From contig JACOXY010000014.1 of the NCBI GenBank assembly GCA_016182095.1, positions 7,234-71,233 on the forward strand: a DNA stretch of 64,000 nucleotides. The letters run 5' to 3'. The first letter of the stretch is position 1. The number at the start of each line of letters is the position of its first letter. The notes under the pieces were generated by a model. It was not told the origin of the DNA and ran no database searches. It was given only the letters and a program-made list of their open reading frames with translations. Source of the stretch: Candidatus Liptonbacteria bacterium (GTDB lineage Bacteria; Patescibacteriota; Minisyncoccia; UBA6257; JACOXY01). Position numbers and translations under genes: made by a program. Shown here in pieces: positions 4,080-64,000 of the stretch.

Positions 4080-4161
4080 GCTAAATTTATTTTCCGCCTT
4101 AGGCGGATCAGCTTTGGCTGAAAATTGATTAATCGATAAAATTTAACTATAAATTCTTGCA

Positions 4162-4196
4162 CCCCGTTAGATGGCGGCTCCGCCTATCTAACGGGG
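4162..4196. terminator. about 16-bp intergenic hairpin (CCCCGTTAGATGGCGG/CCGCCTATCTAACGGGG) between the gyrB 3' end and secE
   Basis: near-perfect palindrome seen in the sequence; only a weak T-run, so terminator function is uncertain. Confidence 0.35.
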
Positions 4197-4386: not shown

Positions 4387-7300
4387 CTAAATATCTAAAT
4401 TTTTGACCCCAGCGGCGTGAGTTTGGATAAATTGTTTTCTGGGCTCAACTTCGTCGCCCATTAAAATATCAAAAAGTTTATCGGCGTCTTCGGCATCTTT
4501 TACGGTTACAACCAGCATTTTGCGGGTAGCGGGATTCATGGTGGTATCCCAAAGCTGATCCGGATTCATCTCGCCCAAACCTTTATATCGCTGAACATTA
4601 ACCGCAACTCGCCTATCCCCCGCCGCCTCTTCAGCGTCCGCTTTCTCCGCTTCTTTTAATTCATGCTTTCCGGCTCGCGCTTTGCCAAATTTCACGATGA
4701 TCGCTTCTTTTTCGTTTTCATTATATGCATACTGAACCTCTTTGCCTGATTGAATTCTAAAAAGCGGCGGCTGGGCTATGTAAAGATAGCCGCCATGAAT
4801 AACCTGCGGAAAATAACGATAGAAAAGGGTGAGTAGCAGGGTGCGAATGTGCGCCCCATCAACGTCGGCATCGGTCATAATAACAATCTTGTGGTAACGA
4901 ATTTTTTCTATATTAAAGTCCTGGGCGATGGCGGTCCCCAGAGCCATCACCAGCGCGCGGATTTCTTTATTGGCAAGCATTTTATCTATGCGCGATTTTT
5001 CTACATTCAAAATTTTCCCGCGCAAAGGAAGTATTGCCTGCGTGCGCCGATCGCGGCCCATTTTTCCGCTATTGTGCACAAACACGCCAGAAGCCAATGC
5101 GAAATTATGAGTTTTAGGAACTTCAAGGTCATAAACATCAACTTTTTCATTAAGCCAAAGGATTTCTTTAATTTTGTGGTTATGACGCTCTACTGCTTCA
5201 ACTAAATTTCTTGCGTCGCTTCCAAAAAATCTTTTAACAATAGTTTCGGCGCGTAGCAAGTTTTTGTCATTAGTTGCTTTTCTTAGATTCTCATACTCAC
5301 TAAAGTCAATTTCGCCTTTAGTTTCGTAGATACCGCGCAAAGCTTGCAGGGCTTTCTGCTTATAGGTTTCGTTATAAGCAAGTTTTCTCCTTAAACGAAA
5401 TTCGGGCGTCCATTGATCTTTGGTTTTGCCGCTGCGCCATTTTTTAAGCTTCTCATCATTCCATTGTATTTTAGCGAATTCGGAGTAAGCAAGACGTTTT
5501 TCTGGATGGTTTTCAAAATAAGCTCGCGTGCGATTCGCTTGATCGCGCCGATTTTTTTCTTCTGACCAATATTCTTTTTGCGCTCTGCTTAAAATGCTCG
5601 CGCTCTGTGCCCGATAGGCCGCATTATTGTGATAAAAATCCAAAAATTTATCAGTCATAAATTGCTTATAATCTTTGTCTTGCCACTGTTTTTGGGCACG
5701 CTCACTTAGCATCTTTCTCATTTGTGGAGTAGACATGCTGGCTCTAATTTTATTCCTGTATTCAGGTGTCTGCCTTATTAGACGAAGTTTTTCTAAAACT
5801 TGAGGGGATCGCAAAAAAATATCCGCCATTTTACGATGCAGGCCTAAATGATCTTCGCTTGAAAGTCGTGTAATATTTTCCGGGTTATTGTTTAGTTTAT
5901 TGAAATCTATATGGTGTCTGTGCGCGCCAATGCTTTTTTCGTAAATATTATTTTTCAGATTATAGTCGTCAGATAGCATGTGGGTAAAAATCCATTTCTG
6001 GTTCTGCGAATTAAAAACCATTTCGTATCCGTCAATTGTAATGCGACCGCCAATTTTGGATATTTTTTTGTATAACGGCATTAGCGAGTCTTGCGATAAA
6101 AGATCCCTAGCTTTTTTATAAGAACCATTAAGAAGCATGAATTCGTGGTCTGGCGTACAAATAATTTCCTCGCCATTATCAAGCACAACTTTAACAACTT
6201 CTGTATTCTTTTTAGTAATCCTAGGATAAACTATTTTCTGTATTGCAACTGCCCCATCTTTATCAATGGTGTAGCAATAGTTTTGTATGCCTTTTTTATC
6301 CTCATGGACCAAATCCTTAAAAGACAAATTGCGTCCATCAGCCAGTGAAACTTTTGTGTTGCCCGAAAAACATCCTCCGGCTGAATCGCCTTCCACTATA
6401 AACAATTCCGATTCGGCCGGGTCTCGCGATGAGCAATCGGCTAATTTCCCTGGCAAGGTTAAGCCCTCAAGAATTCCTTTTCGCAAAACGGTGTCTTTCG
6501 CGGCCTTAGCGGCTTTGCGAGCTTTAGCCGCAAGCAAACACTTTTCAACCATTCTCCGCGCGTCAGCCGGATGTTTCTCTAAAAATTCTTTCAAAGACTC
6601 GCTTACCACCGATTCAACAACCGTTCTCGCCTCCGGAGTCCCAAGGCGGGCTTTGGTTTGCCCTTCAAATTGCGGTTGGGAAAGTTTAACGGAAATGACC
6701 GCCACCAAACCTTCGCGCACGTCATCGCCCGTCAAATTGTCGTCTTTTTCCTTTAAGTAACCCTCGGTTCGCGCGTAAGAATTGATGGCGCGGCTCAAAG
6801 CCGATTTAAACCCGGTTGAGTGCATGCCGCCATCGGAAGTATAGATGTTGTTGGCAAAACTTAACTCTTTTGATTCAATATCCTCGGTATAAGTAAAAGC
6901 TACTTCTACTTCTATGTTATTTTCGCTTTTTTGGATGTAAAAAGGATCGTCCTGCAGAACTTTCGCGGCAGGAGTAAGGTGCCGCAAAAACGAAAGCAGT
7001 CCGCCGTCAAATTTAAGGGCGTAATATTTTGGCGCGTCAGTCCTTAAATCCCAAAAGTCAATTCTAACTCCCTTTGTTAAAAACGCCTGCTGGCGCAAGT
7101 GGTCCAAAATATACTTCCAATCAAATTTAATCTCTCCGCCACCGGTTGAAAAAATCTCCGGGTCTGGCTCAAAAATAACTTTAGTGCCAATTTGATCGCA
7201 TTTACCGACCCTCTTCACGACTTTCTTCGCCTTGCCTCGTTCATATTCTTGCTCATAAAGATAGCCATCCCGACAAACTTCGGCTTTAAGATAAATTGAG

Positions 7301-7716
7301 AGCGCGTTAACCACAGAAACCCCAACGCCATGCAAACCACCGGAAACTTTATAAGAATCACCGCCAAATTTGCCCCCGGCGTGAAGCGTGGTCATAACTG
7401 TTTCCAGGGCGGATTTTTTCGTCTGCTTATGAATATCAACCGGGATGCCGCGCCCATTATCGGTAACCGCCACCCTATTCCCCGGCAAAAGCTCAACTTT
7501 GATAGCAGTGGCATACCCAGCCATCGCCTCATCAATAGAATTATCAACCACTTCCCAAATCAGGTGGTGCAAGCCGGCGCTGTCGGTTGTGCCAATATAC
7601 ATCCCGGGGCGCTTTCTTACCGGCTCAAGACCCTCCAAAACATAGATGTCCTTTGCTTCATAGCTCGCGTGCTTTGACGCGTCTGGAGTTTTTTTAGTTT
7701 CTTTTACTTTTGCCAT
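4387..7716 (-). CDS. gyrB: DNA gyrase subunit B, interrupted by an in-frame intein
   Basis: 1109-aa ORF; GHKL ATPase motifs, TOPRIM EGDSAGG and a C-terminal GyrB tail; host protein is about 675 aa once the 434-aa intein is removed. Confidence 0.95.
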   Translation of the reverse strand: MAKVKETKKTPDASKHASYEAKDIYVLEGLEPVRKRPGMYIGTTDSAGLHHLIWEVVDNSIDEAMAGYATAIKVELLPGNRVAVTDNGRGIPVDIHKQTKKSALETVMTTLHAGGKFGGDSYKVSGGLHGVGVSVVNALSIYLKAEVCRDGYLYEQEYERGKAKKVVKRVGKCDQIGTKVIFEPDPEIFSTGGGEIKFDWKYILDHLRQQAFLTKGVRIDFWDLRTDAPKYYALKFDGGLLSFLRHLTPAAKVLQDDPFYIQKSENNIEVEVAFTYTEDIESKELSFANNIYTSDGGMHSTGFKSALSRAINSYARTEGYLKEKDDNLTGDDVREGLVAVISVKLSQPQFEGQTKARLGTPEARTVVESVVSESLKEFLEKHPADARRMVEKCLLAAKARKAAKAAKDTVLRKGILEGLTLPGKLADCSSRDPAESELFIVEGDSAGGCFSGNTKVSLADGRNLSFKDLVHEDKKGIQNYCYTIDKDGAVAIQKIVYPRITKKNTEVVKVVLDNGEEIICTPDHEFMLLNGSYKKARDLLSQDSLMPLYKKISKIGGRITIDGYEMVFNSQNQKWIFTHMLSDDYNLKNNIYEKSIGAHRHHIDFNKLNNNPENITRLSSEDHLGLHRKMADIFLRSPQVLEKLRLIRQTPEYRNKIRASMSTPQMRKMLSERAQKQWQDKDYKQFMTDKFLDFYHNNAAYRAQSASILSRAQKEYWSEEKNRRDQANRTRAYFENHPEKRLAYSEFAKIQWNDEKLKKWRSGKTKDQWTPEFRLRRKLAYNETYKQKALQALRGIYETKGEIDFSEYENLRKATNDKNLLRAETIVKRFFGSDARNLVEAVERHNHKIKEILWLNEKVDVYDLEVPKTHNFALASGVFVHNSGKMGRDRRTQAILPLRGKILNVEKSRIDKMLANKEIRALVMALGTAIAQDFNIEKIRYHKIVIMTDADVDGAHIRTLLLTLFYRYFPQVIHGGYLYIAQPPLFRIQSGKEVQYAYNENEKEAIIVKFGKARAGKHELKEAEKADAEEAAGDRRVAVNVQRYKGLGEMNPDQLWDTTMNPATRKMLVVTVKDAEDADKLFDILMGDEVEPRKQFIQTHAAGVKNLDI
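5071..6372 (-). other. intein (Hint splicing domain with an HNH endonuclease-like domain and a basic repeat-rich region) in gyrB, inserted immediately after EGDSAGG
   Basis: starts with Cys (CFSGNTKVSLADG...TPDHEF), ends ...VYDLEVPKTHNFALASGVFVHN followed by Ser+1; internal HRHHIDFNKLNNNPENITRLSSEDH is an HNH motif; residues 449-882 of the ORF. Confidence 0.8.
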
Positions 7717-7907
7717 TTTTAAATGAAGAGCGTAGCGATGAATCTACAAAAATGAGCACCCCGCTCTAATTTTGCTATCACCATATCTTAAAATTCAGTT
7801 GGAACTATTTATATGATATTTGGTGCGACCTGCGCGTGCCGAATAGGCACATCCCGCTAATGGGCGAAGCGGGTCGCCATGGCATATTCCGCAAAATTAG
7901 AGCGGGG
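7717..7907. promoter_or_regulatory. family-2 element upstream of gyrB: conserved leader (AAGAGCGTAGCGAT...GAGCACCCCGCTCTAATTTTGC) whose far partner GCAAAATTAGAGCGGGG lies about 115 bp away; the spacer carries GC-rich local hairpins
   Basis: 17-bp perfect inverted repeat at 7759-7775 and 7891-7907; the leader is shared with the parB and rpsR upstream regions. Confidence 0.45.
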
Positions 7908-8242
7908 TAGCCATCTCAACAAAATAATGCTCCCCCCAGGAGCTAGATTTTCTTAATATTTTATACTTACAGTTTAGCATAAAACGAGTCTAAAAACAAC
8001 AGAAATTGGACTTAAAAAGCAACGCTACCCCGCACTAAATTCCGCACATTATTTGCTCTAAACTGCTTTTATTATCGTCACGGAAACCGCCTCAACTCCG
8101 GGTAGTGAATTGAATGAGTTTCGGCTTTGGCAAGCGCTCTTTGTTCGCTAACATAGAGAATTAGCGCGGGGTTCTGTTGCTTGTAGCTTTTCGAACTGCG
8201 CGCTTCGCGCTTGTTCTTAAAGACAAGCAACGAAAAAGAGGG

Positions 8243-8704
8243 CTATTTGCCCTCTCCATAATACGTGAAAACCAAGTTCGCGAGCCTCACAATAGCTTCT
8301 TCAAAAGTGGGCGCGCCACAGCAAAGGCGATGATCAACGCTGGGCTGACCGTCAGGAAATATCTTTCTCATTTCTTCCGCTTGCCCGGGGTAAGCAGTAA
8401 ACTCCTTTTCATAGTCGTTGACCTTGATCAATGGCCCGCACTCCAGCCAAACACGAGTTTCGGTATTTTTCGCCTCATCGTCATCAACTTCTTTAGTCAA
8501 GGGATTTACCTTGACCGCATCCCAGTCAAGGTACACATTAAAAGCGCTTCCCAAAATTCCATCATCAAAAATCGGGTGCTCCTCCAAAAATCTGCACGAT
8601 TCGTAGAAATCGGTAAATCTTTCTTGCGGTTCACCAGAAATAAAATCTCCAAGCATTTCTCTCGGCGACTTGCCACCAGGAAGTTTTCCAAAGCCAACAG
8701 CCAT
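8243..8704 (-). CDS. hypothetical protein (153 aa)
   Basis: clean ORF, no recognised motif. Confidence 0.5.
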   Translation of the reverse strand: MAVGFGKLPGGKSPREMLGDFISGEPQERFTDFYESCRFLEEHPIFDDGILGSAFNVYLDWDAVKVNPLTKEVDDDEAKNTETRVWLECGPLIKVNDYEKEFTAYPGQAEEMRKIFPDGQPSVDHRLCCGAPTFEEAIVRLANLVFTYYGEGK

Positions 8705-8821
8705 TACAACCTACCTTTCTGTAAGAGTAGCTGATATTCTTATAGCAAAGTGAGTAAAAATTAGCAAATTTGACTTATGGGACTAATAGGACTTATAAGT
8801 CTTATAAGACCAATAAAACAT

Positions 8822-9370
8822 ATGTCTTATAAAGATTTAAAATCCTACCAGCAAGCGACAATAGTTTATGACTTTACTTTTGAATTCTGCAATCGTTACA
8901 TTGATAAAAGATCGCGCACTCACGATCAAATGGTGCAAGCCGCGCGCTCCGGGAAGCAAAACACAGTAGAAGGTTCCAGCGAAAAAACATCAGAAAAAAG
9001 CGAGCTGAAATTAATCGGGATAGCGCGTGGCTCATTGCAAAAACTTTTGGAAGATTATGAGGATTACTTAAGACAAAATGGGTTAAAACAATGGGGGAAA
9101 GACGGTCGGCGAGCAATTGAAATTAGAAATTTGTCTTATATGTTAAATAGGTCTTATTTGACCTATGAGTCTTATATTGGGAATCAAGAAGCCGCGGCTA
9201 ATGTAGCGATTTGCTTAATCCACCAGACAAACTATTTATTGGATCGCCAGATTAAAACATTAGAAAATGAATTTGTCTTGCGCGGCGGCTACAATGAAAA
9301 TCTCACAAGAAAACGCAACGAAGAGAAGAAAAGGGATATAATACAAAATTTTTGGAGAAAACAGCAATAA
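8822..9370 (+). CDS. four-helix-bundle protein (the family found in 23S rRNA intervening sequences) with a C-terminal suffix domain
   Basis: MSYKDLKSYQQA...MVQAARSGKQNTVEGSSEK...LKLIGIARGSLQKLLEDY matches the family signature; start placed at Met16 of the ORF; flanked by CTTATAAG/GTCTTAT palindromic repeats. Confidence 0.65.
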   Translation: MSYKDLKSYQQATIVYDFTFEFCNRYIDKRSRTHDQMVQAARSGKQNTVEGSSEKTSEKSELKLIGIARGSLQKLLEDYEDYLRQNGLKQWGKDGRRAIEIRNLSYMLNRSYLTYESYIGNQEAAANVAICLIHQTNYLLDRQIKTLENEFVLRGGYNENLTRKRNEEKKRDIIQNFWRKQQ

Positions 9371-9811: not shown

Positions 9812-9935
9812 CCCTCACTCAAGAAAGAGCATTATCCGCCCTCTCTTTTTTTAATTAATTTATCAACTTAATATTACTCGACTAAAAACATTTTATTCTA
9901 GAGACAGAAACCCAAACTCTTTCTTGAGTGAGGGA
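9811..9935. promoter_or_regulatory. family-1 long-range inverted repeat (TCCCTCACTCAAGAAAGAG, about 87 bp, CTCTTTCTTGAGTGAGGGA) between the histidine kinase stop and the response regulator start
   Basis: perfect 19-bp arms at 9811-9829 and 9917-9935; the proximal arm overlaps the regulator ATG and the distal arm abuts the kinase stop. Confidence 0.5.
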
Positions 9936-11198
9936 TTATAGCTCTGCTGTAGTTGCGATGACCTTTGTACCCGCTCTGGGCTTCATGCCCGTCAGTGGTA
10001 TTGTAACATAAAAAGCAGTGCCTCGCTCGTCCGTAGCTTCACGCGAAGGAGAGCCATGCCCACCCACAGACTCAAACCAAATTTTCCCGCCGGCCGCTTC
10101 CAGGGTTGCCTTAACAATATATAATCCCAAACCGTTGCCTTCAATCTCATTGCTTTTAACATTGTCTGCCCGAAACATTTTGGTAAAAATTTGCGATTTT
10201 TGATCTTCCGGTATTCCATAGCCGGTATCCGTTACTTTAATAAGCGCGTTCTCGCCATCCTTAATAATACTCAAGCTTATGCTGCCTCCCTCCGGGGTAT
10301 ACTTAATGGCATTTGATAATAAATTCTGAAAAACTATCCAGACTATTTTGGAATCGGCATTTATGGAAACCAGAGTTTCGTCATAGCGCTTTTCCAGTTT
10401 CAGTTTTTTCTCCATGAGCTTTCCTGCGAGCTCACCCAAAACGCCCTCGGCGATTCCCGCTAAACTCACTGGCTCCGGGTTAATTGAAAAAGTTCCCATT
10501 TCAACCCGTGAAACATTCAGTAGGGCGTTTACCAAATTTATGACTCTTTTTATGCTGTAGCCAATCTCATTTAAATACTGTATCTGCTTGTGGTTTAGCT
10601 CTCCCACTCTACCCGAAAGAAGCATCTGCGCGTACCAATTGATAACGGAAAGCGGGGTGTTCAACTGATGCGAAACCAAGGACACAAACTCACCGCGCAC
10701 CCTATCCGACTCCTTCCTTAGGGTAATATCCTGATGCAAGGAGCCATAAAACAATATCTCCCCGCCCTTGGACTTAATCGGAAAAACAGAAAGATTGGTT
10801 TCATATTCAGTGCCATCTTTGCGGCGATTAATAATTTCTTCCGTCGTCAAAGACTCGCCGTTCTTCAAGGAGTCCCACATTTTTTTATAGGCGAGTTGGG
10901 GAGTTTTGGAACTGCGCAGAAGGCGGGGGTTCTTGCCCTTGATATCAATCAAACTATAGCCGGTAACCCTTTCCCAGGTAGGATTTACATAAATAATATT
11001 GCCATCCAAATCAGTGATGAGAATTGCCTCCGTTGAGGCATCCACAATGGATTGAAAAATGTGCACCTCGCCGCTAACCGCCCTTGGGTCCGCTTTTAAC
11101 TCACTTAACTCCGCGGAGATTTTTTCTTTTTCGGCAAGCGCGCTCTCTAAGGCGGCTTTAAGTTTTTCTACTTCTTGGTTTGATGAAAATCCTAACAT
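9936..11198 (-). CDS. sensor histidine kinase with a PAS domain
   Basis: PAS region, H-box HQLNTPLSVI, N/G boxes (...NAIKYTPEGG...GTGLGL); upstream partner of the response regulator. Confidence 0.85.
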   Translation of the reverse strand: MLGFSSNQEVEKLKAALESALAEKEKISAELSELKADPRAVSGEVHIFQSIVDASTEAILITDLDGNIIYVNPTWERVTGYSLIDIKGKNPRLLRSSKTPQLAYKKMWDSLKNGESLTTEEIINRRKDGTEYETNLSVFPIKSKGGEILFYGSLHQDITLRKESDRVRGEFVSLVSHQLNTPLSVINWYAQMLLSGRVGELNHKQIQYLNEIGYSIKRVINLVNALLNVSRVEMGTFSINPEPVSLAGIAEGVLGELAGKLMEKKLKLEKRYDETLVSINADSKIVWIVFQNLLSNAIKYTPEGGSISLSIIKDGENALIKVTDTGYGIPEDQKSQIFTKMFRADNVKSNEIEGNGLGLYIVKATLEAAGGKIWFESVGGHGSPSREATDERGTAFYVTIPLTGMKPRAGTKVIATTAEL

Positions 11199-27867: not shown

Positions 27868-28045
27868 TTTTTAATTTATAATTTTTGGTTTATAATAGAA
27901 TTATGCCCAGTAATACAACTTACAGTATACTTGGCAAATTGTAACAAATCATTAGTAATGAACTTGAATAAATATTTATCAACTGATAAAGCTAGTTGAT
28001 TTTTATTTTTTAATAAAAATCACGCTGTAAGTTGATATACTAGGT

Positions 28046-28816
28046 ATGGCGCCTATAGAAAAGGAGGGTTATTGGACTCCATTAGAAAAACAGGTTAGAG
28101 ACTATATATTCCTGCCAATTACTTGGCCATTTAAGTTTATTCCGCATGCGGCCAACATTTTGACGATGATCGGATTCGGCATACTTTTTTATGCCATTTA
28201 CGATTTCTATATATATGAAAGCTATTCCCGCCAGATTTGGCTTTTAACCGCCGCCTGGCTCACGGATTTATTTGATGGACCGATAGCCAGAAACAACAAT
28301 GATGTAACCGCCTTCGGCACAGCCGCCGACCATATCCGCGACTACTTCATAAGTTTCTGGATGCTCACCCTCGCCTTCTTTATAACGGCAGATTCTCCGC
28401 AGTTTTGGCCGGTTTACTGGATTCTTGTTTTTACGATCTTGGGGCTTTTGGGCGTCATAGCGGGCACGTTGCTCTTCCAGAAAGAAAAACGCGGCGAGCG
28501 GCCATGGGGCGGATATCTGGATTTTTTCCGGGAATTTTTATTGAAAGATCTGGTCACGTCGGTAACGGCAAGAATACACACGGTAATCATGGCAATCGGC
28601 GGAGTTTTCTATATCGCGGGTGCCGCCTTGGGAGATGTTTACGCGAAAACAGGGGTGGTTATATTGATAATACAGCTTTTTGTTTTGGGCTTTTATAACC
28701 ACGAAATCCATGAGGCGCGCTACGAAGACAGGGCGCATAAAATAAGAAATATTCTCCAGGAAAAAATCCGCGAGTTGGAAGAAAAACTTAAAAAACACGT
28801 AAAAGTTGACGGCTAA
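28046..28816 (+). CDS. CDP-alcohol phosphatidyltransferase family protein with a C-terminal extension
   Basis: D(x2)DG(x2)AR...G(x3)D(x3)D motif: DLFDGPIARNNNDVTAFGTAADHIRD. Confidence 0.7.
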   Translation: MAPIEKEGYWTPLEKQVRDYIFLPITWPFKFIPHAANILTMIGFGILFYAIYDFYIYESYSRQIWLLTAAWLTDLFDGPIARNNNDVTAFGTAADHIRDYFISFWMLTLAFFITADSPQFWPVYWILVFTILGLLGVIAGTLLFQKEKRGERPWGGYLDFFREFLLKDLVTSVTARIHTVIMAIGGVFYIAGAALGDVYAKTGVVILIIQLFVLGFYNHEIHEARYEDRAHKIRNILQEKIRELEEKLKKHVKVDG

Positions 28817-30090: not shown

Positions 30091-30203
30091 CAGAACCCTG
30101 ACAAAACCTAACCGCTCGGGCGGCGCGGAATTCCCCCCTTGAACCCCCCTTCCGCGCCGCCCTCGCGGGAAGTTCGTTTTTGCCCGCTTCGCGGGCACGC
30201 CGC
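30091..30203. repeat. left arm of an about 113-bp near-perfect inverted repeat bounding the R-M/ImmA island
   Basis: differs from the reverse complement of 33153-33265 at about 3 positions; GC-rich with internal palindromes. Confidence 0.85.
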
Positions 30204-33152: not shown

Positions 33153-33265
33153 GCGGCGCGCCCGCGAAGCGGGCAAAAACGAACTTCCCGCGAGGGCGGC
33201 GCGGAAGGGGGGTTTAAGGGGGGAATTCCGCGCCGCCCGAGCGGTTAGGTTTCGTCAGGGTTCTG
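33153..33265. repeat. right arm of the about 113-bp inverted repeat bounding the R-M/ImmA island
   Basis: reverse complement of 30091-30203 with about 3 mismatches. Confidence 0.85.
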
Positions 33266-40890: not shown

Positions 40891-42015
40891 CTAAATTACA
40901 AAATCGTCTGAATAGCCCTCATCCATGTCATCGCCGCCTTCAGCGCCATTTTTTGCAAGTTTAAGCGCTATTCCCTTTAACTCCTCGGGAGAATAAAAGT
41001 CAATCATAATTTTGCCGCTTCCCCCGCTCTTTTTTATAGTAACCGGAGCGCCGAAAAACAGTTCTAATTGCTCTTTCAAATCAATGATTTCTGGGTCTTC
41101 ATAATCATCCATTTCATAAGGTGCGCTACCCGCTTCTTCCTTCATTTTAGCTACTTGTTTGATCTTATTCCGCAGTTCACGGACGCTTAAATTACTTTTC
41201 AAAATCTCGTCAAACAGTTTTTCTTGGTCACGGGGACTTGAAACCATAAGCAACATTCTTCCCTGACTCTCGTTAAGTTTGCCTTGCGTTAAAGCTTCCT
41301 GGACAACCGTGGGCAAACTTAGAAGCCGCATGGTATTAGCGATGCTTTCTCTGCTTTTGCCAAGCCGCGTGGCTATTTCCCTCTGTGTAAGCCGAAATTC
41401 ATCCTGGAGACGGGAAAATGCTCGAGCCGCCTCAATTGGATTTAAATCCTCGCGCTGGAGGTTCTCAATAATGGCCATCTCCAATTGTTCTTTTGGTGGT
41501 GATGGCTTCCTTATTATTACCGGCACCCTTTCTAAGCCGGCAATTTCGGCGGCGCGTAATCTTCGTTCACCGGCAATAAGCTGATAAGAAACATCTTGGC
41601 CAGACTCTGTTTCGTGCTCAACTTTAGAGACCAAAAGCGGCTGGAGAACCCCGAACTCCGCGATGGAGCGGGCTAGGTCATGAAGGGCTTCCGGATCAAA
41701 ATTCCGGCGCGGCTGTTCAGGATTGGGAGTAATTTTTGCTGTCTCAATGTGAAAAACAGGGCTTACCTCTAAATCCCTGGCCTTGCCGATAGATTTTCCC
41801 ATGCCTGACTCGTAAGCCGGCTTCATATGGCCACCCACAAAAGGATCGCGGCTAGGAATCTCCGGAGGGGTGAGGCGCGTATTTTCTTGCTGTAAATTCA
41901 TGGATGCAAAATCAGTTGAATTATTTAAATTCATTTCTTGAGGCGCCCGCCCCTCATTCTTCAGATTGTCTGGAGAGTGGGGGGGTATTAATGATTCAAG
42001 ACCGCGACCGAGCAT
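40891..42015 (-). CDS. parB: chromosome partitioning protein ParB with a Pro-rich N-terminal region
   Basis: ParB box ...GLERVPVIIRK...IIENLQREDLNPIEAARAF...; start taken at Met15 (MLGRGLESL); the upstream in-frame TTG extension overlaps the family-2 leader. Confidence 0.85.
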   Translation of the reverse strand: MLGRGLESLIPPHSPDNLKNEGRAPQEMNLNNSTDFASMNLQQENTRLTPPEIPSRDPFVGGHMKPAYESGMGKSIGKARDLEVSPVFHIETAKITPNPEQPRRNFDPEALHDLARSIAEFGVLQPLLVSKVEHETESGQDVSYQLIAGERRLRAAEIAGLERVPVIIRKPSPPKEQLEMAIIENLQREDLNPIEAARAFSRLQDEFRLTQREIATRLGKSRESIANTMRLLSLPTVVQEALTQGKLNESQGRMLLMVSSPRDQEKLFDEILKSNLSVRELRNKIKQVAKMKEEAGSAPYEMDDYEDPEIIDLKEQLELFFGAPVTIKKSGGSGKIMIDFYSPEELKGIALKLAKNGAEGGDDMDEGYSDDFVI

Positions 42016-42158
42016 GCCATTTTTACCCAAGAGCGAAGCGATTGGCCGTAAAACCAAGCACCCCGCCCTCTAAGCAATTGATTAATAAAAAATATTTGAT
42101 TTAAATTTTAAACTAAATCCCGCAACACCTCAACAGTCTATGCGCATAGAGGGCGGGG
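42016..42158. promoter_or_regulatory. family-2 element between parA and parB: conserved leader (CCCAAGAGCGAAGCGATTGG...AAAACCAAGCACCCCGCCCTCTAAGCA), its far partner TAGAGGGCGGGG, and an about 75-bp AT-rich spacer
   Basis: 12-bp perfect inverted repeat at 42061-42072 and 42147-42158; the leader is about 85% identical to the rpsR upstream region. Confidence 0.45.
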
Positions 42159-42178
42159 TTAATTTGTTCGGCCAAGCC

Positions 42179-42982
42179 TCACAAATTAAAGTTCCCAAAT
42201 TGGGGCGACATTTGGAATTGATCTTCCTGTCTTATAATTTCTTTCGCGAGCTTGTTATAGGCATAGGCGCCTACTGAATTTGGAGCGTGTAATATAACCG
42301 GCTTTGCGAAACTTGGGGCTTCCGCCAAAGCTATGGACTTGGGTATTTCGGTATTGTAAACGTGATGCGGGAAATGCCTCCTTAGCTCCCTGCCAACCTC
42401 CCTGGATAATCGTTCGCGCTTATCATACATCGTAAGCACCGCTCCTGCAACCATGAGCGGATGGCGCAGATTGTCCCTTACTAAATTTATGGTGTGTAAA
42501 AGCTGGCCCAGTCCTTCCAGACTATAATACTCAGCCTGCACCGGGATCAAGACCTCGTCAGCCGCTATAAGACCATTTACGGTAAGCAGACTTAAAGACG
42601 GCGGCAAGTCTATTAAAATATAGTCGTAATTGTGTCTTATGCCAGTAATAAATTTTCGCAAACAGTGTTCTCTCTCCGGCATCTCAACTAATTCAATAAG
42701 AGCGCCTGCAAGATGAGGCCCAGCTGGGACATACGACAAGCCATAAAGCGCGGAGTTCTTGATTAGAGCGTGCGGTTCGCTAATGCCAAAAATACCATGA
42801 TAAATGGTGTGCTCCTCTCCCATCACATTGTGCCCTAATGCAGAACTCGCATTCCCCTGCGGATCAAAATCAATGACTAATGTGGAACGCCCGTGAGACG
42901 CAAGATAGCCGCCCAAATTTACGGCACTAGTGGTTTTTCCAACTCCCCCCTTAGCGTTACAAATTGCTATAACTCTGGCCAT
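42179..42982 (-). CDS. parA: chromosome partitioning ATPase ParA/Soj
   Basis: deviant Walker A KGGVGKTT; 267 aa. Confidence 0.9.
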   Translation of the reverse strand: MARVIAICNAKGGVGKTTSAVNLGGYLASHGRSTLVIDFDPQGNASSALGHNVMGEEHTIYHGIFGISEPHALIKNSALYGLSYVPAGPHLAGALIELVEMPEREHCLRKFITGIRHNYDYILIDLPPSLSLLTVNGLIAADEVLIPVQAEYYSLEGLGQLLHTINLVRDNLRHPLMVAGAVLTMYDKRERLSREVGRELRRHFPHHVYNTEIPKSIALAEAPSFAKPVILHAPNSVGAYAYNKLAKEIIRQEDQFQMSPQFGNFNL

Positions 42983-43270
42983 CCCTCACTCTTCAAGCAT
43001 TGATTCTCTCAACCGACGCTTGAGAGAGTAGAAACCTTTAGCAAAACGCTTAAGTTGCTTCTCGCGATTAAGCGCATCTGTTTTAGACCTATAACTTTCA
43101 AAATATATTAATGTCATTGGAAGCAGATGTTTAGTAGATTGAACCAGCCTTTTACTATGTTTTACTAATCTTTCTCTAAGATTTGGCGCAAAGCCTATAT
43201 AGAAACTTTTATCCTTCTTTGATTGTAATACATAAACATAAAACATAGTATATGCTTGAAGAGTGAGGGA
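42982..43270. promoter_or_regulatory. family-1 long-range inverted repeat (TCCCTCACTCTTCAAGCAT ... ATGCTTGAAGAGTGAGGGA) whose 250-bp loop contains a GIY-YIG gene; the proximal arm abuts the parA ATG
   Basis: perfect 19-bp arms at 42982-43000 and 43252-43270. Confidence 0.5.
42986..43246 (-). CDS. small GIY-YIG nuclease-superfamily protein
   Basis: MFYVYVLQSKKDKSFYIGFAPNLRERLVKH matches the GIY-YIG core; start taken at Met13 so the distal repeat arm lies in its leader. Confidence 0.7.
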   Translation of the reverse strand: MFYVYVLQSKKDKSFYIGFAPNLRERLVKHSKRLVQSTKHLLPMTLIYFESYRSKTDALNREKQLKRFAKGFYSLKRRLRESMLEE

Positions 43271-45938: not shown

Positions 45939-46151
45939 TTATCTACGGACAAACGGGAGCAATCCAAGAAATCTCGCCCGTTTAATCGCCTCCGCGAGTC
46001 TCCTTTGGTGCTTTGCGCAAGTTCCTGTATGCATGGGATCAATGATTTTCGCCTGGCCCGAAGTAAACTTCCTCAAAAAATCAGAGTCCTTATAATCTAT
46101 TTCCTGCAAGTTTTGCGAACAAAAGTAACATTGAAAGTAACATTGGCGCAT
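45939..46151 (-). CDS. rpsR: 30S ribosomal protein S18
   Basis: CYFCSQNLQEIDYKDSDFLRKFTSGQAKIIDPMHTGTCAKHQRRLAEAIKRARFLGLLPF; start at MRQCYF; the upstream in-frame extension is part of the family-2 leader. Confidence 0.85.
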   Translation of the reverse strand: MRQCYFQCYFCSQNLQEIDYKDSDFLRKFTSGQAKIIDPMHTGTCAKHQRRLAEAIKRARFLGLLPFVRR

Positions 46152-46295
46152 GCCGTTTTTGCCCAAGAGCAAAGCGATTGGATGCAAAACCGAGCACCCC
46201 GCTCTCTAAGCATATAAATAATGGTTAAAATTTAATTTATAATTTGATTATTTTTAGACACGAAACCTTATAATTCCAGCACATAGAGAGCGGGG
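46152..46295. promoter_or_regulatory. family-2 element upstream of rpsR: conserved leader (CCCAAGAGCAAAGCGATTGG...AAAACCGAGCACCCCGCTCTCTAAGCA), its far partner TAGAGAGCGGGG, and an AT-rich spacer
   Basis: 12-bp perfect inverted repeat at 46197-46208 and 46284-46295; about 65 bp shared with the parB upstream region. Confidence 0.45.
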
Positions 46296-46306
46296 CTTCC
46301 TTTCAT

Positions 46307-46765
46307 TCAGAAAGGAAGGTCTTCCGCTTTTATATCATTCCCCTCATCTATATCAATGGTCGGCAAATCTGCGGCTGCGTCCTCTTTGCCGCCTGCCGCA
46401 CCCACCCCCTGTTTCCCGCCTTGAGCACCGGCGTTCGCGGCCCTCGGTCCAAATTGAATTCTTTCGGCCACTATCTCCGTTGTTTTCATGTTTTGTCCCT
46501 CTTTATTCTGCCAGCTTCTGGTTTGAAGTCGGCCCTCAACCATAGCAAGCGCGCCCTTGGTCAAAAATTGGCTCACAGTTTCAGCTTGCCTCCCCCAGAC
46601 AACAACATTGTGGAATTCAACGCTTTCCTGCCTAGCCCCAGCTTTATCGGTCCAGGTTCTGTTGGTAGCCAACCCAAAACTGGCAACCGATTGGCCGCTG
46701 GGAATACTCCTTAATTCCGGATCGCGAGTTAAGCGGCCTATTAAAAATACTTTATTGAGATTCAT
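46307..46765 (-). CDS. ssb: single-stranded DNA-binding protein
   Basis: MNLNKVFLIGRLTRDPELR...; OB fold; acidic C-terminal tail DIDEGNDIKAEDLPF. Confidence 0.9.
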   Translation of the reverse strand: MNLNKVFLIGRLTRDPELRSIPSGQSVASFGLATNRTWTDKAGARQESVEFHNVVVWGRQAETVSQFLTKGALAMVEGRLQTRSWQNKEGQNMKTTEIVAERIQFGPRAANAGAQGGKQGVGAAGGKEDAAADLPTIDIDEGNDIKAEDLPF

Positions 46766-54705: not shown

Positions 54706-54830
54706 GCCCAGTAACACTACTTCAGTGTTACCCGACATATAAGCAAACTAATTGTCATAAAACAATGTCAAAATGCCAAACTAATAATTTATGCTTCGGA
54801 AATAAATTATGCTGAAGTAGTGTTACTGGG
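54706..54830. repeat. 20-bp perfect inverted repeat (GCCCAGTAACACTACTTCAG / CTGAAGTAGTGTTACTGGGC) separated by an about 85-bp AT-rich spacer, 170-300 bp upstream of rpoB; the left arm also folds locally
   Basis: seen in the sequence; same promoter-flanking inverted-repeat architecture as other loci in this window. Confidence 0.6.
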
Positions 54831-54859
54831 CAAGTCTTTGTAATATAATGCTTTCGCAC

Positions 54860-57955: not shown

Positions 57956-58091
57956 GCAATATATAAATTATCCTTGCTTCTCCTAAAAAATGAATAAGAA
58001 AATGCCGAACTCAACCTGGTTTTGCTAAAGCAAAACTGCGGGATTCAAACAGCGGCATTTTCTTATTTTTTACTCGAAGCTTCGGTAATTT
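57956..58091. repeat. left arm of an about 135-bp near-perfect inverted repeat; each arm is a nested palindrome resembling a bidirectional terminator
   Basis: reverse complement of 59503-59638 with about 2 mismatches; inner 15-bp stem AATAAGAAAATGCCG/CGGCATTTTCTTATT with flanking A- and T-runs. Confidence 0.85.
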
Positions 58092-59502
58092 ATATATCTT
58101 GCTACGCGATGCTTATTCAAAAAGATTTTATGCTCTTACATATATTAAGATAATAGCAGAAAAAATAAAATAGAAAAAGCCCCGCCAACTTGTGACGAGG
58201 CGGCCCCGCGCAGTTTATCAATGCCCGGGGTGGTGGCTGGGGGTGCCGTAGCACCTAGGGCCTGCCACCTCGGTCAGAGACTGGATCCTTGAAGCGCGTC
58301 CCCTTGTGGGGCCGCCTTCAAGTTGTGAGCCACTGGCTCACAAACAAGCGCGATCCAATCTCCTGGAAAATTTTAAGAACTCGCGGAGGGAGATGTCGGC
58401 CTATCCCGTGGCTCGGTTGCCGGCTGGTCGGGCCAGGCAGAACGGCAGCTTGCGCTGCGGCCTTGTTTCCGTCGTTGCCCAGCGCCCATTCCCCGACAGT
58501 TTACCGGACATCTCCTCCCGCGAAATCTGGGCTCGCAGCTTCGCACAATTGACAACTGACACTTAACAATTGACTTGTGCAGACAAGCGCAAATTTCGTG
58601 GGATAAGTTTATTTTATTTCCTGAGCCTGTCGAAGGAATACAATACTGTAGTGCTTCGACTACGCTCAGCAACTAAATTTTCACCCCCCCAAGTAAATGT
58701 TTTTCACTATCTGCCTTTCCTGAAATATCTTACTTGAATGAAACGATTGACTGAAAAACACTTACTTGGTACATTACAGCTACGCCCAGAACTTCGTCGG
58801 GCCCGCGCGCACGACATACGGTGCGTTAGCCGGCCACCTCTGGACGTAGGACTTGCGGCGACCTCGAGATCACCGCGCACCAATGAAAAGAACTTGCGAA
58901 GCTCGGAAGAACAACTTCCGTCGTCTTACGGTTCGGAAACCCCGAACGCTGCAGCGGTAACAGCTCCCACGGCCAGCGCCAAGCACCAGCATCCGAGCTC
59001 CCGGCGAATATTGGAGGTGTGCTGCCCGGACCAGCACACCCCCGCTGCTTTAGCCAATCTCCAGGAAGTGTCTCGGGCCTCCCAAGATTGGATTTCAACA
59101 TTATAGCATACTATCCAGAATAATGCAAGTAGTCAAAAAAACAGCGTGAAATAAGGGTTTTATAAGCAAGTGAGAAGCCCAACTTTGTGACATCCGATGT
59201 CCAGAAACAAAAGACATTAATATTCGGGACATCGGAAGTCAATGCAAAGTCCAACTTTGCGACATCCGATATCTAAAGATGTGGCTGCGGAAAGAAGCCC
59301 AACTTTGTGACTTCCGATGTCCAGAAACAAAAAACTTCAACCCTTCGACTTCGCTCAGGGCAGGCATTTAGGACTTCGGATGTAAGGGGTTATCCTACTA
59401 TATACTGCCCCACTTGGCGCCAAAAAGCCACACGAGGGGTAAGACCTAATATTTGGAAAATGGCGCAACATTTTTTTATGAGCATCACACAGCAATATCT
59501 AT
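58092..59502. other. about 1.4-kb GC-rich non-coding structured element of unknown class, bounded by the 135-bp inverted repeats
   Basis: no ORF longer than 122 codons despite high GC; overlapping short ORFs in all frames; many perfect local and long-range helices; three about 42-bp direct repeats at 59174-59335. Confidence 0.4.
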
Positions 59503-59638
59503 AAATTATCGAAGCTTCGAGTAAAAAATAAGAAAATGCCGCTGTCTGAATCCCGCAGTTTTGCTTTAGCAAAACCAGGTTGAGTTCGGCATTTTCTTAT
59601 TCATTTTTTAGGAGAAGCAAGGATAATTTATATATTGC
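59503..59638. repeat. right arm of the about 135-bp inverted repeat
   Basis: see the left arm. Confidence 0.85.
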
Positions 59639-63302: not shown

Positions 63303-64000
63303 GATTTATTTTTGCAAAATAAATCATTAAATCTGGTGGTTGATAATATTTATGATAATTTAATTTATTTTAAACTTTTTCGCATTTTGCCAAAAAACTG
63401 AAAGTTGTATTACTGGGCATAGTTTTAGCATACGGAAATTATGGGAAAATAACAAAGCTACGCACCAGAACAAGTTCGGTGCGTTACTTCACTTCGTTTA
63501 GCTTTCTCTCACAAATTAAAAAAGTTTGTTCTACTTTATCAAGTTCTTCGGAACTGAAGGCGCTACGGTGCCGGCCCCTAACCCACTGCGGTTGGGGGTT
63601 TTTTATTTTAAACAAAAATCCGCCTCTCGGCGAAATTTTTCTGCTCTTCTTTGTGCTGGCGTACCCTACTTTCCCAGTGATAGTATCATCAGGCTTAGAC
63701 GCTTTCACTTCTCTGTTCGGAATGGGAAGAGGTGGTGCACATCCAAGTAAAACACCAGCACAAAAAAGACCAGATTAAATTTTAATATAGAAATTAGCAG
63801 ATATATGCCTTCCTTAGGAAGGGCACAGTCAGCATTGGGATGGTCGGCACCCATTAGTACCCTTTGGCTCGGCACTCTCTACACAAATATCGCGAAACAT
63901 TGGAAGCTCAAAATTATGCCGGAGCTCGCGGCGCGACGACGAAAGTGTACTCGAAGAGTACATTGAGGAGGAGCAACAAAGAGATCATCTAATTTTGAGT

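Follow-up and report, generated by a model that had tools for sequence, protein, structure and literature searches.

A conserved, folded mRNA element with covarying helices at the start codons of housekeeping genes in Parcubacteria

The window analysed here, a stretch of 64,000 nucleotides from a Candidatus Liptonbacteria genome, carries gyrB (with an intein), parB and rpsR on its minus strand with true starts at 7716, 42015 and 46151, the GyrB, ParB and Ribosomal_S18 domains being Pfam-confirmed. Each start is associated with a copy of one element, which is therefore read on the minus strand, from right to left. A first-pass annotation had reported that these three loci share an element, and all the sequences it gave are present where it placed them: AGCACCCCGC occurs exactly three times in the window (plus strand, 7755, 42057 and 46193), and exact occurrences of TAGAGNGCGGGG lie at 42061-72 (minus), 42147-58 (plus), 46197-208 (minus) and 46284-95 (plus). 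The element described there as an upstream leader is real, but it belongs to the minus strand and its position is fixed by the start codon itself. What was described as a shared leader of about 65 nt is a covarying hairpin, present also at 53 distinct loci of other genomes. The family represents a folded mRNA leader or intercistronic element that is modular and conserved in Parcubacteria (Paceibacteria-type CPR bacteria), not a repeat confined to the Liptonbacteria genome of the window. On the gene strand its parts are:

P0: optional hairpin just past the stop codon of the upstream gene
P1: long-range helix CCCCGC.../...GCGGGG, enclosing a loop of 4 to about 250 nt
P2: hairpin immediately 3' of P1, UGC-U-CNN-UUUU-NN...[UCGCUUCGCUC]...NN-AAAA-NNG-GCA; at the three window copies a 46-nt hairpin ending on the start codon
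P-alt: pairing of the P1 3' arm and GGGGUG with the P2 loop CGCUUCGC(UCUU), mutually exclusive with P1 and with P2

The gyrB copy has the following features:

7707-7762, minus strand: P2 hairpin (covariance-model match 55.6 bits, E 8.5e-10; alignments)
7758-7775, minus strand: P1 3' arm, GCAAAAUUAGAGCGGGGU on the minus strand, in an 18-nt perfect inverted repeat
7825-7878, minus strand: conserved three-way junction (the 'type A' insert) within the P1 loop, with outer stem GGCGACCCGC paired to GCGCAGGUCGC and two hairpins
7891-7908, minus strand: P1 5' arm, ACCCCGCUCUAAUUUUGC, pairing with 7758-7775, 115 nt apart

P2 here begins with GGGG at 7762-7759, has a degenerate upper stem, and holds the AUG (7716-7714) within its 3' strand, paired to CAU. 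P1 is present in the minimum-free-energy fold (z = -4.68), and the sequence next to its 5' arm, 7909-7917 (GAGAUGGCU), is a mirror of the P2 5' strand with which P1 can be extended. The spacer between the arms, first described as AT-rich, is at gyrB not merely that, as it contains structured RNA: across 15 type A loci RNAalifold gives the three-way junction 33 pairs, 16 of them with compensatory changes, and eight of the nine outer-stem pairs covary. The word CGCUUCGC is common to this junction and the P2 loop.

The parB and rpsR copies, designated type B, are laid out as follows:

42011-42064, minus strand: parB copy, P2 hairpin (covariance-model match 72.2 bits)
42060-42072, minus strand: parB copy, P1 3' arm, UAGAGGGCGGGGU, a 13-nt perfect arm with its partner 74 nt away
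42105-42133, minus strand: parB copy, sense promoter-like site TTGAGG-17-TAAAAT within the P1 loop (pattern match; predicted, without transcript data)
42147-42159, minus strand: parB copy, P1 5' arm, perfect complement of 42060-42072
42160-42189, minus strand: parB copy, P0 hairpin adjoining the P1 5' arm (from the fold), including the parA stop codon (42181-42179)
46147-46200, minus strand: rpsR copy, P2 hairpin (covariance-model match 76.3 bits), AUG (46151-46149) at its 3' base
46197-46208, minus strand: rpsR copy, P1 3' arm, UAGAGAGCGGGG, a 12-nt perfect arm with its partner 75 nt away
46284-46295, minus strand: rpsR copy, P1 5' arm, perfect complement of 46197-46208
46296-46318, minus strand: rpsR copy, P0 hairpin adjoining P1, the ssb stop codon (46309-46307) in its loop

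In the parB copy the AUG (42015-42013) stands directly after the GGC at the P2 3' base, and the P1 3' arm together with UG also pairs with the P2 loop (42029-42040) as P-alt. Between the leaders of parB and rpsR, 8 of 60 positions differ, which gives 87% identity, close to the 'about 85%' first estimated. The in-frame LLGKNGM extensions assigned to them are artefacts of the ORF caller, arising from a TTG inside the hairpin, and are not coding. A coding N-terminal extension is rejected because the same hairpin is used in two or three different start frames and its changes are compensatory.

Two additional, diverged or orphan copies are present in the window:

8019-8238, plus strand: orphan copy, P1 pairing 8019-8033 with 8158-8171, P2-like hairpin spanning 8168-8238 (covariance-model match 28.3 bits, E 0.0011)
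4080-4196, minus strand: diverged fifth copy upstream of secE (covariance-model match 22 bits, E 0.028)

The first of these contains the weaker fourth pair of the first-pass annotation, which does exist (8019-8033 with 8158-8171), but the copy is an orphan with no plus strand gene behind its P2-like hairpin; read on the minus strand, this hairpin is a mirrored P0. The secE copy forms P1 locally, as a hairpin of 4196-4186 with 4172-4162; next comes a longer P2-like hairpin, whose end is at the AUG (4079) of a Pfam-confirmed SecE.

The structure of the element, three helices observed together with their conservation or covariation, is well supported. The perfect far-upstream partner proposed for each locus is borne out by 18, 13 and 12 perfect pairs at gyrB, parB and rpsR, and the proposal that the arms co-vary between loci extends well beyond the window. 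A pairing far arm is present at 50 of 53 loci, the arms being 7-24 nt long; 90.5% of the P1 cells are paired, against at most 57% in slid controls, and double, compensatory changes occur at nine of 13 pairs. Such arms are not expected by chance, the probability that a 12-mer has its complement within 300 nt being about 2e-5, and an arm-finder score of at least 24 is reached by 2.4% of 287 other GGGG sites in the window versus 66% of 50 elements. The window contains 27 perfect inverted repeats of at least 11 nt spaced 30-300 nt apart, compared with 5.7 in shuffles. P2 is supported by 69 distinct sequences, in which 96.7% of cells are paired and both sides change at 13 of 16 pairs (slid controls at most 48%), and a hand alignment of 20 sequences gives the same picture. 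Counts of G.U versus A.C pairs neither prove nor favour the sense strand.

The start codon is observed in fixed registers, either inside the P2 3' strand and paired to its complement or right after P2. The former is seen in 25 cases, always facing the complement (12 AUG/CAU, 11 UUG/CAA and two GUG/CAC); the latter comprises 23 cases with AUG directly behind GGC and three in which it lies 2-3 nt further on. The strict search pattern has 17 matching loci in the one-genome-per-species GTDB set and 53 in metagenomes, all named ones CPR/Parcubacteria, and no match in viral contigs, which give no sign of phage use. The related contigs come from groundwater, for example from sites of the Hainich or Rifle type. 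The 53 distinct loci represent about a dozen Parcubacteria lineages, and the motif lies every time at a start codon. The downstream genes observed to carry it, with Pfam confirmation, include those for L11, L27, L32, L16, L6, S14, S16, S18, SecY, GroEL, DnaK, SSB and MreB. For L11, L27, L32 and ssb the association recurs from one candidate phylum to another, with the copies diverging gradually. A 16S 3' end was sought in the related loci and none was found.

The element matches no catalogued RNA. Rfam 15 searched against the whole window at the gathering threshold returns only tRNAs and 5S rRNA, positions 7600-8300 at E <= 10 give only a chance lncRNA match and nothing for the type A three-way junction, and sixteen related loci (135 kb) yield only tRNAs; no described Parcubacteria/Patescibacteria leader motif of this kind was found in the literature. 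A known Rfam family (riboswitch, ribosomal-protein leader, ribozyme, T-box, thermometer) is rejected, as no family matches in these scans. An intrinsic terminator is rejected on anatomy: the only terminator-like sites are a 5-pair mini-hairpin, GAGC-GGGGU-GCUC, followed by U-rich sequence, the U run starts 7 nt downstream of P1, and genes lie directly behind. An RNA thermometer is likewise rejected on anatomy, and the gene set does not fit one either.

When the far arm is missing, the ground state predicted for the RNA is the alternative pairing of CGCTCTT with AGAGCGGGG, noticed at the outset. For 5'-truncated rpsR and parB RNAs the minimum-free-energy fold is P-alt, and in 49 sequences 88% of cells are compatible with it, versus 48-58% when slid, the variable loop positions being U or C facing G. 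It is without true covariation because its loop partner is invariant, an invariance that is partly imposed by the search pattern, and the nearest-neighbour energies of G.U-rich helices are uncertain. With the 5' arm present the predicted accessibility of the region from -12 to +3 is 0.25 in type A and 0.35 in types B and C; without the arm it is 0.55 in each (15 of 18 type A loci, p = 1e-4; 24 of 28 type B and C loci, p = 8e-6). These figures are thermodynamic predictions only, and there are no data on differential translation of long versus short transcripts.

The element probably decides which transcripts of a gene are translated, though any mechanism is inferred only. Our best reading, which we hold tentatively as somewhat short of probable, is that a relay of helices keeps the start region concealed as long as the RNA is a read-through product with a free 5' arm, and exposes it when that arm is absent or occupied. 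The element would then be a four-segment relay. In read-through RNA from the upstream gene with a free 5' arm, P1 would form and so P2 would form; the start region, which is A-rich, would then be buried, in one register along with the start codon itself. Were the 5' arm missing or occupied, the 3' arm could invade the P2 loop to make P-alt, so that the start region would be released and the gene translated. The arm would be missing from a transcript that begins at a promoter in the P1 loop, which is plausible for the parB/rpsR class; alternatively, a ribosome finishing the upstream ORF might occupy or unwind it. Which state is ON, and what flips it, are thus inferences. Among the results that count against the model, in the gyrB copy the predicted accessibility of the start is unchanged (0.60 with the 5' arm versus 0.54 without). 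In the parB/rpsR register the helix buries no more than the 12 nt before the AUG, which sits at its base, and no context gives strong pairing of the AUG itself. Nor does the relay explain why highly expressed genes need silencing on read-through RNA.

A stringent promoter pattern (TTGNNN or NTGACA, 16-18 nt, TANNNT) is observed in the sense direction in 12 of 21 type B loops and in the antisense direction in three (shuffles 2.4 +/- 1.4, with 0 of 500 reaching 12), in none of 17 type A loops and not in the rpsR loop. The promoter-like boxes first noted in the spacers hold up as a sense enrichment in the parB/rpsR class but not for the gyrB-type spacer, and rpsR itself has no stringent match; an earlier, lenient promoter score did not clearly set the sense direction (8.8) apart from antisense (8.3) or shuffled sequence (7.6). 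In the absence of transcript data the promoters in P1 loops remain predictions. Four loci (L001, L002, L012 and L050) have loops of 4-22 nt, too short for a promoter, so that only the ribosome-coupling trigger is possible there. In 17 of 20 loci an upstream ORF on the same strand stops no more than 150 nt from P1, 15 of these at 4-60 nt, and in many loci the upstream stop codon lies 4-23 nt before P1; P0 adjoins P1 in types B and C.

The same helices could instead form a processing or stability module, in which P1 is an RNase III-type site where read-through RNA is cleaved between the cistrons and the loop content removed, while P0 protects the 3' end of the upstream mRNA and P2 the 5' end of the downstream one. 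The early RNase III sites of phage T7 have this arrangement. The long-loop P1 helices, of 12-24 bp and often perfect, tolerate any loop content, from promoters and hairpins to a three-way junction; P0 and P2 directly flank P1; and the genes concerned are highly expressed, for which stable mRNA matters. We nevertheless think such a module, for which there are no cleavage data, unlikely, though not negligible: P1 is only 7 bp in several loci (five), too short for RNase III, whose processing stems have about two helical turns, and no RNase III gene (rnc) lies within the window, which does not address the rest of the genome. Processing would also leave unexplained why the P2 loop is invariant and complementary to the 3' arm, and why start pairs with anti-start. 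The element might alternatively be the leader of a regulon, in which one protein, small RNA or ligand binds the P2 loop (UCGCUUCGCUC) and, at genes of the gyrB class, the three-way junction with its CGCUUCGCC, and so co-regulates translation of ribosomal, chaperone, secretion and replication genes. A loop sequence kept across candidate phyla, the same motif at dozens of unrelated housekeeping genes, and a separate covarying junction in at least 15 loci that has CGCUUCGC in common with the loop would suit a trans-acting factor. No candidate factor has been identified, no Rfam riboswitch or protein-binding leader matched, and the double duty of the loop in P2 and P-alt already accounts for its conservation; we rate this explanation as quite unlikely.

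It could also be argued that the RNA folds are mere by-products of a DNA-level or selfish feature, either a mobile palindrome (MITE, Correia, REPIN) or inverted repeats around an invertible promoter. The element is quasi-palindromic in some loci, P0 mirroring P2 with weak model matches on the opposite strand; the pair counts do not favour the sense strand; GIY-YIG ORFs lie within or adjoining such loops; the window has its orphan copy without a gene; and of the four near-identical type C copies in genome JBAZTS01, two share the same arms but have the loop in opposite orientation. With the exception of those copies, the criteria for MITE, Correia and REPIN elements (identical termini, homologous interior, variable gene position) are not met: arms vary between loci yet match within each locus, the loops of the window copies are neither homologous nor alignable, the start codon sits at fixed registers, and L11, L27, L32 and ssb retain the element, gradually diverging, from one candidate phylum to the next. 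An inverton, which calls for both orientations at one locus and a dedicated recombinase, is not indicated by the assembled same-arm pairs: 36 such pairs from different samples are co-oriented and the sole inverted pair represents paralogous loci. Loops as short as 4 nt, the dependence of P-alt on G.U pairs, found in sense RNA only, and the lack of strict-pattern matches in viral contigs also speak against a DNA-level origin, which we regard as very unlikely.

The tentatively favoured relay has its closest precedent in the phage T4 genes e, soc, 49 and I-TevI, whose long read-through RNAs have the start region occluded by a helix, while an internal promoter gives shorter, translated RNAs without the 5' strand, an established design based on transcript origin (PMC3014915). 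The T4-type criterion of a start-burying helix is met, as P2 covaries and the start is paired in 25 loci, and type B loops are enriched in predicted sense promoters placed in the T4 manner. Unlike its T4 counterparts, the element has a far arm that does not pair with the start codon and would act via the relay (P1 and P2 versus P-alt), its loop of 4-250 nt sometimes contains structured RNA, and it is a conserved sequence family, reused in several candidate phyla at dozens of housekeeping genes of cells and not a phage device for a particular gene, without experimental data. In T4 genes 38 and 25 a hairpin separates the Shine-Dalgarno sequence from the AUG (PMC3014915), and P2 similarly has a purine run (GGGGUG; GAGGG in type B arms) on one side and the start on the other, with a looped-out spacing of 4-7 nt, a geometry that fits. 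GGGGUG as an exposed Shine-Dalgarno sequence with P2 as spacer is a weak proposal, kept only as an analogy, because GGGGU is predicted to be nearly always paired (0.02-0.14 unpaired in types B and C) and, unlike in T4, the start codon lies inside the hairpin in half of cases.

The start-associated sequences of Cluster K mycobacteriophages are likewise conserved repeats a few nucleotides from many start codons: SAS is a 13-nt GGGATAGGAGCCC with a canonical AGGAG, 3-7 nt before the start, and ESAS consists of 17-bp imperfect repeats with a conserved consensus, spacers mostly of 4-13 bp and departures that do not support RNA hairpins (PMC3203893). Membership is not met, as the sequences differ and the parcubacterial element has covarying helices, spacers to about 250 nt and cellular CPR hosts. 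Mutually exclusive helices, 1:2 plus 3:4 versus 2:3, are the basis of trp-type attenuators. As in these and in translational coupling via long-range mRNA structure, a ribosome at or near segment 1 could redirect folding of the element; unlike in attenuators the output would be access to the start site and not termination, and there is no U-tract after P2 and no conserved leader peptide. Correia elements and REPINs are intergenic inverted repeats, some with outward promoters and hairpin-forming transcripts, that have identical terminal repeats in each copy, a variable distance to genes and genus-specific occurrence. The element resembles them as intergenic inverted repeats of similar size, but its arms co-vary per locus and it is locked to the start codon across phyla.

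CPR bacteria, Parcubacteria among them, make up a large share of bacterial diversity and few have been cultured; to our knowledge almost nothing is known of the control of their gene expression. One RNA structure on the starts of genes for ribosomal proteins, chaperones, SecY/SecE, SSB, GyrB and ParB would be a first handle on post-transcriptional regulation in CPR bacteria. The RNA catalogue would gain a widespread motif and a three-way-junction module, while in annotation the element would account for spurious N-terminal extensions and settle true starts, including UUG and GUG. It would also offer a defined system for the insulation of operon-internal promoters by RNA folding, so far documented in phage T4. 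A broader and decidedly unlikely extension is an RNA 'grammar' throughout Parcubacteria, in which the relay sits on the starts of core genes for translation, chaperones, secretion and replication, each cistron is translatable only from a transcript of its own promoter or during translation of the upstream gene, and the gyrB/L11/DnaK/GroEL class adds a three-way-junction sensor of a global signal (protein or metabolite), making one riboregulator of the growth machinery in ultra-small bacteria with few transcription factors.

Kissing of the P2 loop with an upstream complement has no clear support and is not excluded, the duplex energies being only marginally better than those of downstream controls (-13.0 versus -11.9 kcal/mol, p = 0.07). 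Separately, candidate kissing partners of the P2 loop are found at consistent positions in types A and C.

The element is a folded mRNA leader found at gyrB, parB and rpsR, which all lie on the minus strand with identities confirmed by Pfam, in a Candidatus Liptonbacteria MAG whose SSB, ParA and S6 proteins, encoded in the window, match NCBI entries exactly. The shared leader and far complementary arm proposed in the first-pass annotation are present at all three loci: the window has exactly three copies of AGCACCCCGC, the 12-mer TAGAGNGCGGGG is present exactly at both arms of the parB copy and of the rpsR copy, the parB and rpsR leaders share 87% identity across 60 nt, and every arm pair, forming the long-range helix P1, is perfect.

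Copies of the element and their genes (window positions)
4390-7716, minus: GyrB with intein (Pfam)
7758-7775 / 7891-7908: P1 arms of the gyrB copy, perfect, 18 nt, spacing 115 nt
42015, minus: true AUG of ParB (Pfam)
42060-42072 / 42147-42159: P1 arms of the parB copy, perfect, 13 nt, spacing 74 nt
46151, minus: AUG of S18, rpsR (Pfam)
46197-46208 / 46284-46295: P1 arms of the rpsR copy, perfect, 12 nt, spacing 75 nt
4080-4196: diverged copy before secE, covariance-model match
8019-8238: orphan copy, covariance-model match

The gyrB intein is ~425 aa long (Intein_splicing, aa 457-882). The parB copy separates parA from parB, and the rpsR copy separates ssb from rpsR, so that both sit within classical operons. 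The 'LLGKNGM' N-terminal extensions described earlier arise because the ORF rule chooses a TTG within the hairpin.

The strict pattern GGGGTGCTNNNTTTTN{7,8}ATCGCTNNGCT matches 17 loci in the GTDB set of species representatives (from Lipton-, Yanofsky-, Wolfe-, Brenner- and Harrisonbacteria, from Paceibacterota, and from certain MAGs that carry the label Saccharibacteria) and 53 in metagenome contigs, with no match in viral contigs. Once duplicates are dropped 53 distinct instances remain, all adjoining a start codon. The downstream genes confirmed by Pfam encode ribosomal proteins (L11, L27, L32, L16, L6, S14, L33, S16 and S18), SecY, GroEL, DnaK, SSB, MreB, an FtsE-like ATPase, GreA, GyrB, ParB, signal peptidase, prepilin peptidase, dCMP deaminase, an Nramp transporter and a trypsin-like protease; one more, without Pfam match, has an N-terminus that reads as type IV pilin. 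A covariance model built from 20 copies adds diverged copies, some before nusB, nusG and rpsH.

P1 is present in 50 of 53 loci; its arms measure 7-24 nt and its loops 4-249 nt. The 5' arm begins with CCCC, and the 3' arm ends in an invariant GGGG touching the second helix, P2. Across 13 pairs, pairing holds in 90.5% of cells, and 9 of the pairs have double changes (slid controls at most 57%). The 5' arms were picked by best pairing, but control sites handled identically score far lower: 66% of elements reach an arm-finder score of at least 24, as do 2.4% of 287 GGGG sites elsewhere in the window. Arm pairing at the elements is thus far beyond chance, and P1 appears in the minimum-free-energy fold of all three window copies (z-scores -2.1, -2.2 and -4.7). 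G.U versus A.C counts leave the strand undecided. The hairpin P2 spans positions 5-50 (numbering starts at the first G of GGGG). Across the 69 distinct sequences compared, 96.7% of its cells are paired, with both-side changes in 13 of 16 pairs and slid controls at most 48%; that alignment was fitted to the model, but a 20-sequence alignment not so fitted still gives 95.3%.

The start codon keeps a fixed register with P2. In 25 cases it lies inside the 3' strand, at positions 45-47, always opposite its complement at positions 9-11 (AUG/CAU 12, two of them, at dnaK, offset by one position; UUG/CAA 11; GUG/CAC 2); in 23, parB and rpsR among these, it occupies positions 50-52 right after GGC, and in 3 it lies 2-3 nt further on. 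L11 genes of related genomes (loci L007, L020, L025, L040, L048, L058 and L066) have UUG starts paired to CAA in P2, and the pilin-like gene a GUG start paired to CAC; ATG-preferring gene callers would misplace both.

The third helix, P-alt, pairs GCGGGGUG with the P2 loop CGCUUCGC (8/8 pairs, reaching 12 in type B, the P1 loop class of parB and rpsR) and excludes both P1 and P2. It corresponds to the alternative pairing suggested from sequence inspection, and is the predicted ground state of the rpsR and parB RNAs without the 5' arm. Over 49 sequences 88% of P-alt cells are paired, against 48-58% when slid, without true covariation; the free positions of the P2 loop are U or C opposite G in P-alt. 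The invariant nucleotides are those in two helices, as is typical of switching RNAs, although this invariance is partly imposed by the search: the sample was seeded with the strict pattern, so that GGGGTGCT, TTTT and ATCGCT..GCT are constant partly by construction. We show here a conserved three-helix RNA architecture locked to the start codons of housekeeping genes.

The P1 loops differ by class. Type A, to which the gyrB copy and 18 further distinct loci belong (mostly preceding L11, DnaK, GroEL and L27), contains a conserved, strongly covarying three-way junction. An alignment of 15 loci (A5; window copy 7825-7878, minus) gives 33 consensus pairs, of which 16 are compensatory. The junction is marked by the CGCUUCGCC junction strand and a CUAUUCG hairpin loop; no Rfam family matches it, and it could be a sensor domain in its own right. 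Type A loops also carry a local hairpin competing for the 5' arm, and a segment beside the 3' arm with complementarity to the P2 loop. In type B the loops are AU-rich, and type C loops (four copies, one genome) contain a stable hairpin. In types B and C a further hairpin, P0, adjoins the 5' arm; in the window copies it holds the stop codon of parA or ssb, and in some genomes it mirrors P2, making the whole element quasi-palindromic. In type C paralogues of one genome (L010 136-189 versus L016 3915-3969 and L043) the P1 arms are identical and the ~80-nt loop lies in opposite orientation, so the segment was inverted, or inserted both ways, at least once.

The promoter-like boxes reported in the spacer are supported, as sequence predictions, for one class only. 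A lenient score gives no clear signal, but a stringent pattern (TTGNNN or NTGACA, 16-18 nt, TANNNT) finds 12 sense and 3 antisense matches in 21 type B loops (shuffles 2.4 +/- 1.4; 0/500 reach 12), the -10 box ending 11-42 nt upstream of the 3' arm, against 0 sense and 3 antisense in 17 type A loops (shuffles 1.6 +/- 1.2). At the level of sequence prediction the claim therefore holds for type B, including the parB copy (TTGAGG-17-TAAAAT), and not for the gyrB class; the rpsR loop has no match to the stringent pattern.

We tentatively favour, at somewhat less than even confidence and by inference without expression data, a helix relay. A free 5' arm would allow P1 and then P2 to form, burying the start region; were the arm absent, in a transcript from a loop promoter, or occupied by a ribosome terminating 4-23 nt upstream, P-alt would form and release it. 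With P1 loops of 4-22 nt the ribosome would be the only available trigger. In partition-function calculations for positions -12 to +3 around the start codon, removing the 5' arm raises predicted accessibility from 0.25 to 0.55 in type A (15/18 loci; p = 1e-4) and from 0.35 to 0.55 in types B and C (24/28 loci; p = 8e-6), and in most type A loci start codons within P2 go from ~0 to 0.4-0.8 unpaired; for the window's gyrB copy, with a degenerate upper P2, predicted accessibility is unchanged. The ribosome half of such a relay is classical structure-mediated translational coupling. A 27-codon ORF (7897-7980, minus) begins after the orphan element and has its UAA within the P1 5' arm of the gyrB copy; if translated, it would provide gyrB with a coupling trigger.

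RNase III-type processing, in which the hairpins P0 and P2 would protect the ends, is possible but unlikely, and we are more doubtful still that a global factor or ligand binds the leader, a reading that would not rule out the relay. That the element acts at the DNA level or is selfish, as a palindrome or inverton, seems quite improbable: the two paralogues with identical arms but the loop inverted, the GIY-YIG ORFs in loops and the existence of an orphan copy would fit it, but the arms are locus-specific and covarying, the start-codon registers are fixed, the same genes keep the element across phyla and loops go down to 4 nt.

The closest mechanistic analogues of the favoured relay element are the T4 start-site occlusion cases, the promoter-in-helix design being known from T4 genes e, soc, 49 and I-TevI (PMC3014915). 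The closest formal analogue is SAS/ESAS of Cluster K mycobacteriophages, likewise start-associated repeats with upstream inverted repeats, for which the authors found no support for RNA pairing (PMC3203893). The element fails the membership test for Rfam families (none matches any copy), MITE or REPIN repeats, invertons and intrinsic terminators, and the searchable literature yielded no account of it. We rate it as a cis-acting start-site-occluding leader, a known kind, but reusable, modular and lineage-wide.

Perfect inverted repeats of at least 11 nt, 30-300 nt apart, number 27 in the window against 5.7 in shuffles, because several other 'leader plus far arm' families are present. One, ...CUUGAGUGAGGG-AUG (minus), has a perfect 19-20 nt complement far upstream; a third family comprises 20-23 nt long-range inverted repeats (CUGAAGU..ACUGGGCAU-G) 86-99 nt apart, 2/3 ending on a start codon.

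Arms of the second leader family and of the third repeat family (window positions)
2859-2878 / 2969-2988, minus: second family, before L11
9810-9829 / 9917-9936, minus: second family, before the 9440-9811 gene
42982-43000 / 43252-43270, minus: second family, before parA
54706-54725 / 54812-54831: third family
27903-27925 / 28025-28047, plus: third family
63277-63299 / 63398-63420: third family

Since these families share the P1 principle without P2, long-range closure beside start codons is suggested to be a general habit of the Liptonbacteria genome. At 9936 the second-family 5' arm starts on the final base of the upstream stop codon; its partner, the 3' arm, takes in the AU of AUG; the arm core CCCUCACU is similar to type C P1 arms of genome JBAZTS01 (L004, L010, L011 and L016). 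A small GIY-YIG nuclease ORF (42989-43246, minus; Pfam E 6e-13) lies exactly within the loop closed by the parA leader arms, and a diverged copy of our element (L015, 3396-3468) directly follows another; P1-type loops may be landing sites for such genes.

In many window genes a Shine-Dalgarno sequence is missing and a -10-like box lies just 6-12 nt upstream of ATG (starts 47313, 37439 and 23167), for example rpsF (TATATT...ATG) and the gene at 37439 (TATACTAATCTC-ATG), features which together suggest, from sequence alone, that leaderless or near-leaderless mRNAs may be frequent. The window also holds two similar ~140-nt modules 1.5 kb apart (57959-58097 and 59497-59635), a pair of GC-rich 19-nt hairpins (CCGCGAGGGCGGCGCGGAA; 30112-30168 and 33188-33244), and palindromes at 8768-8847, at the start of a gene resembling 23S-rRNA-intervening-sequence protein.
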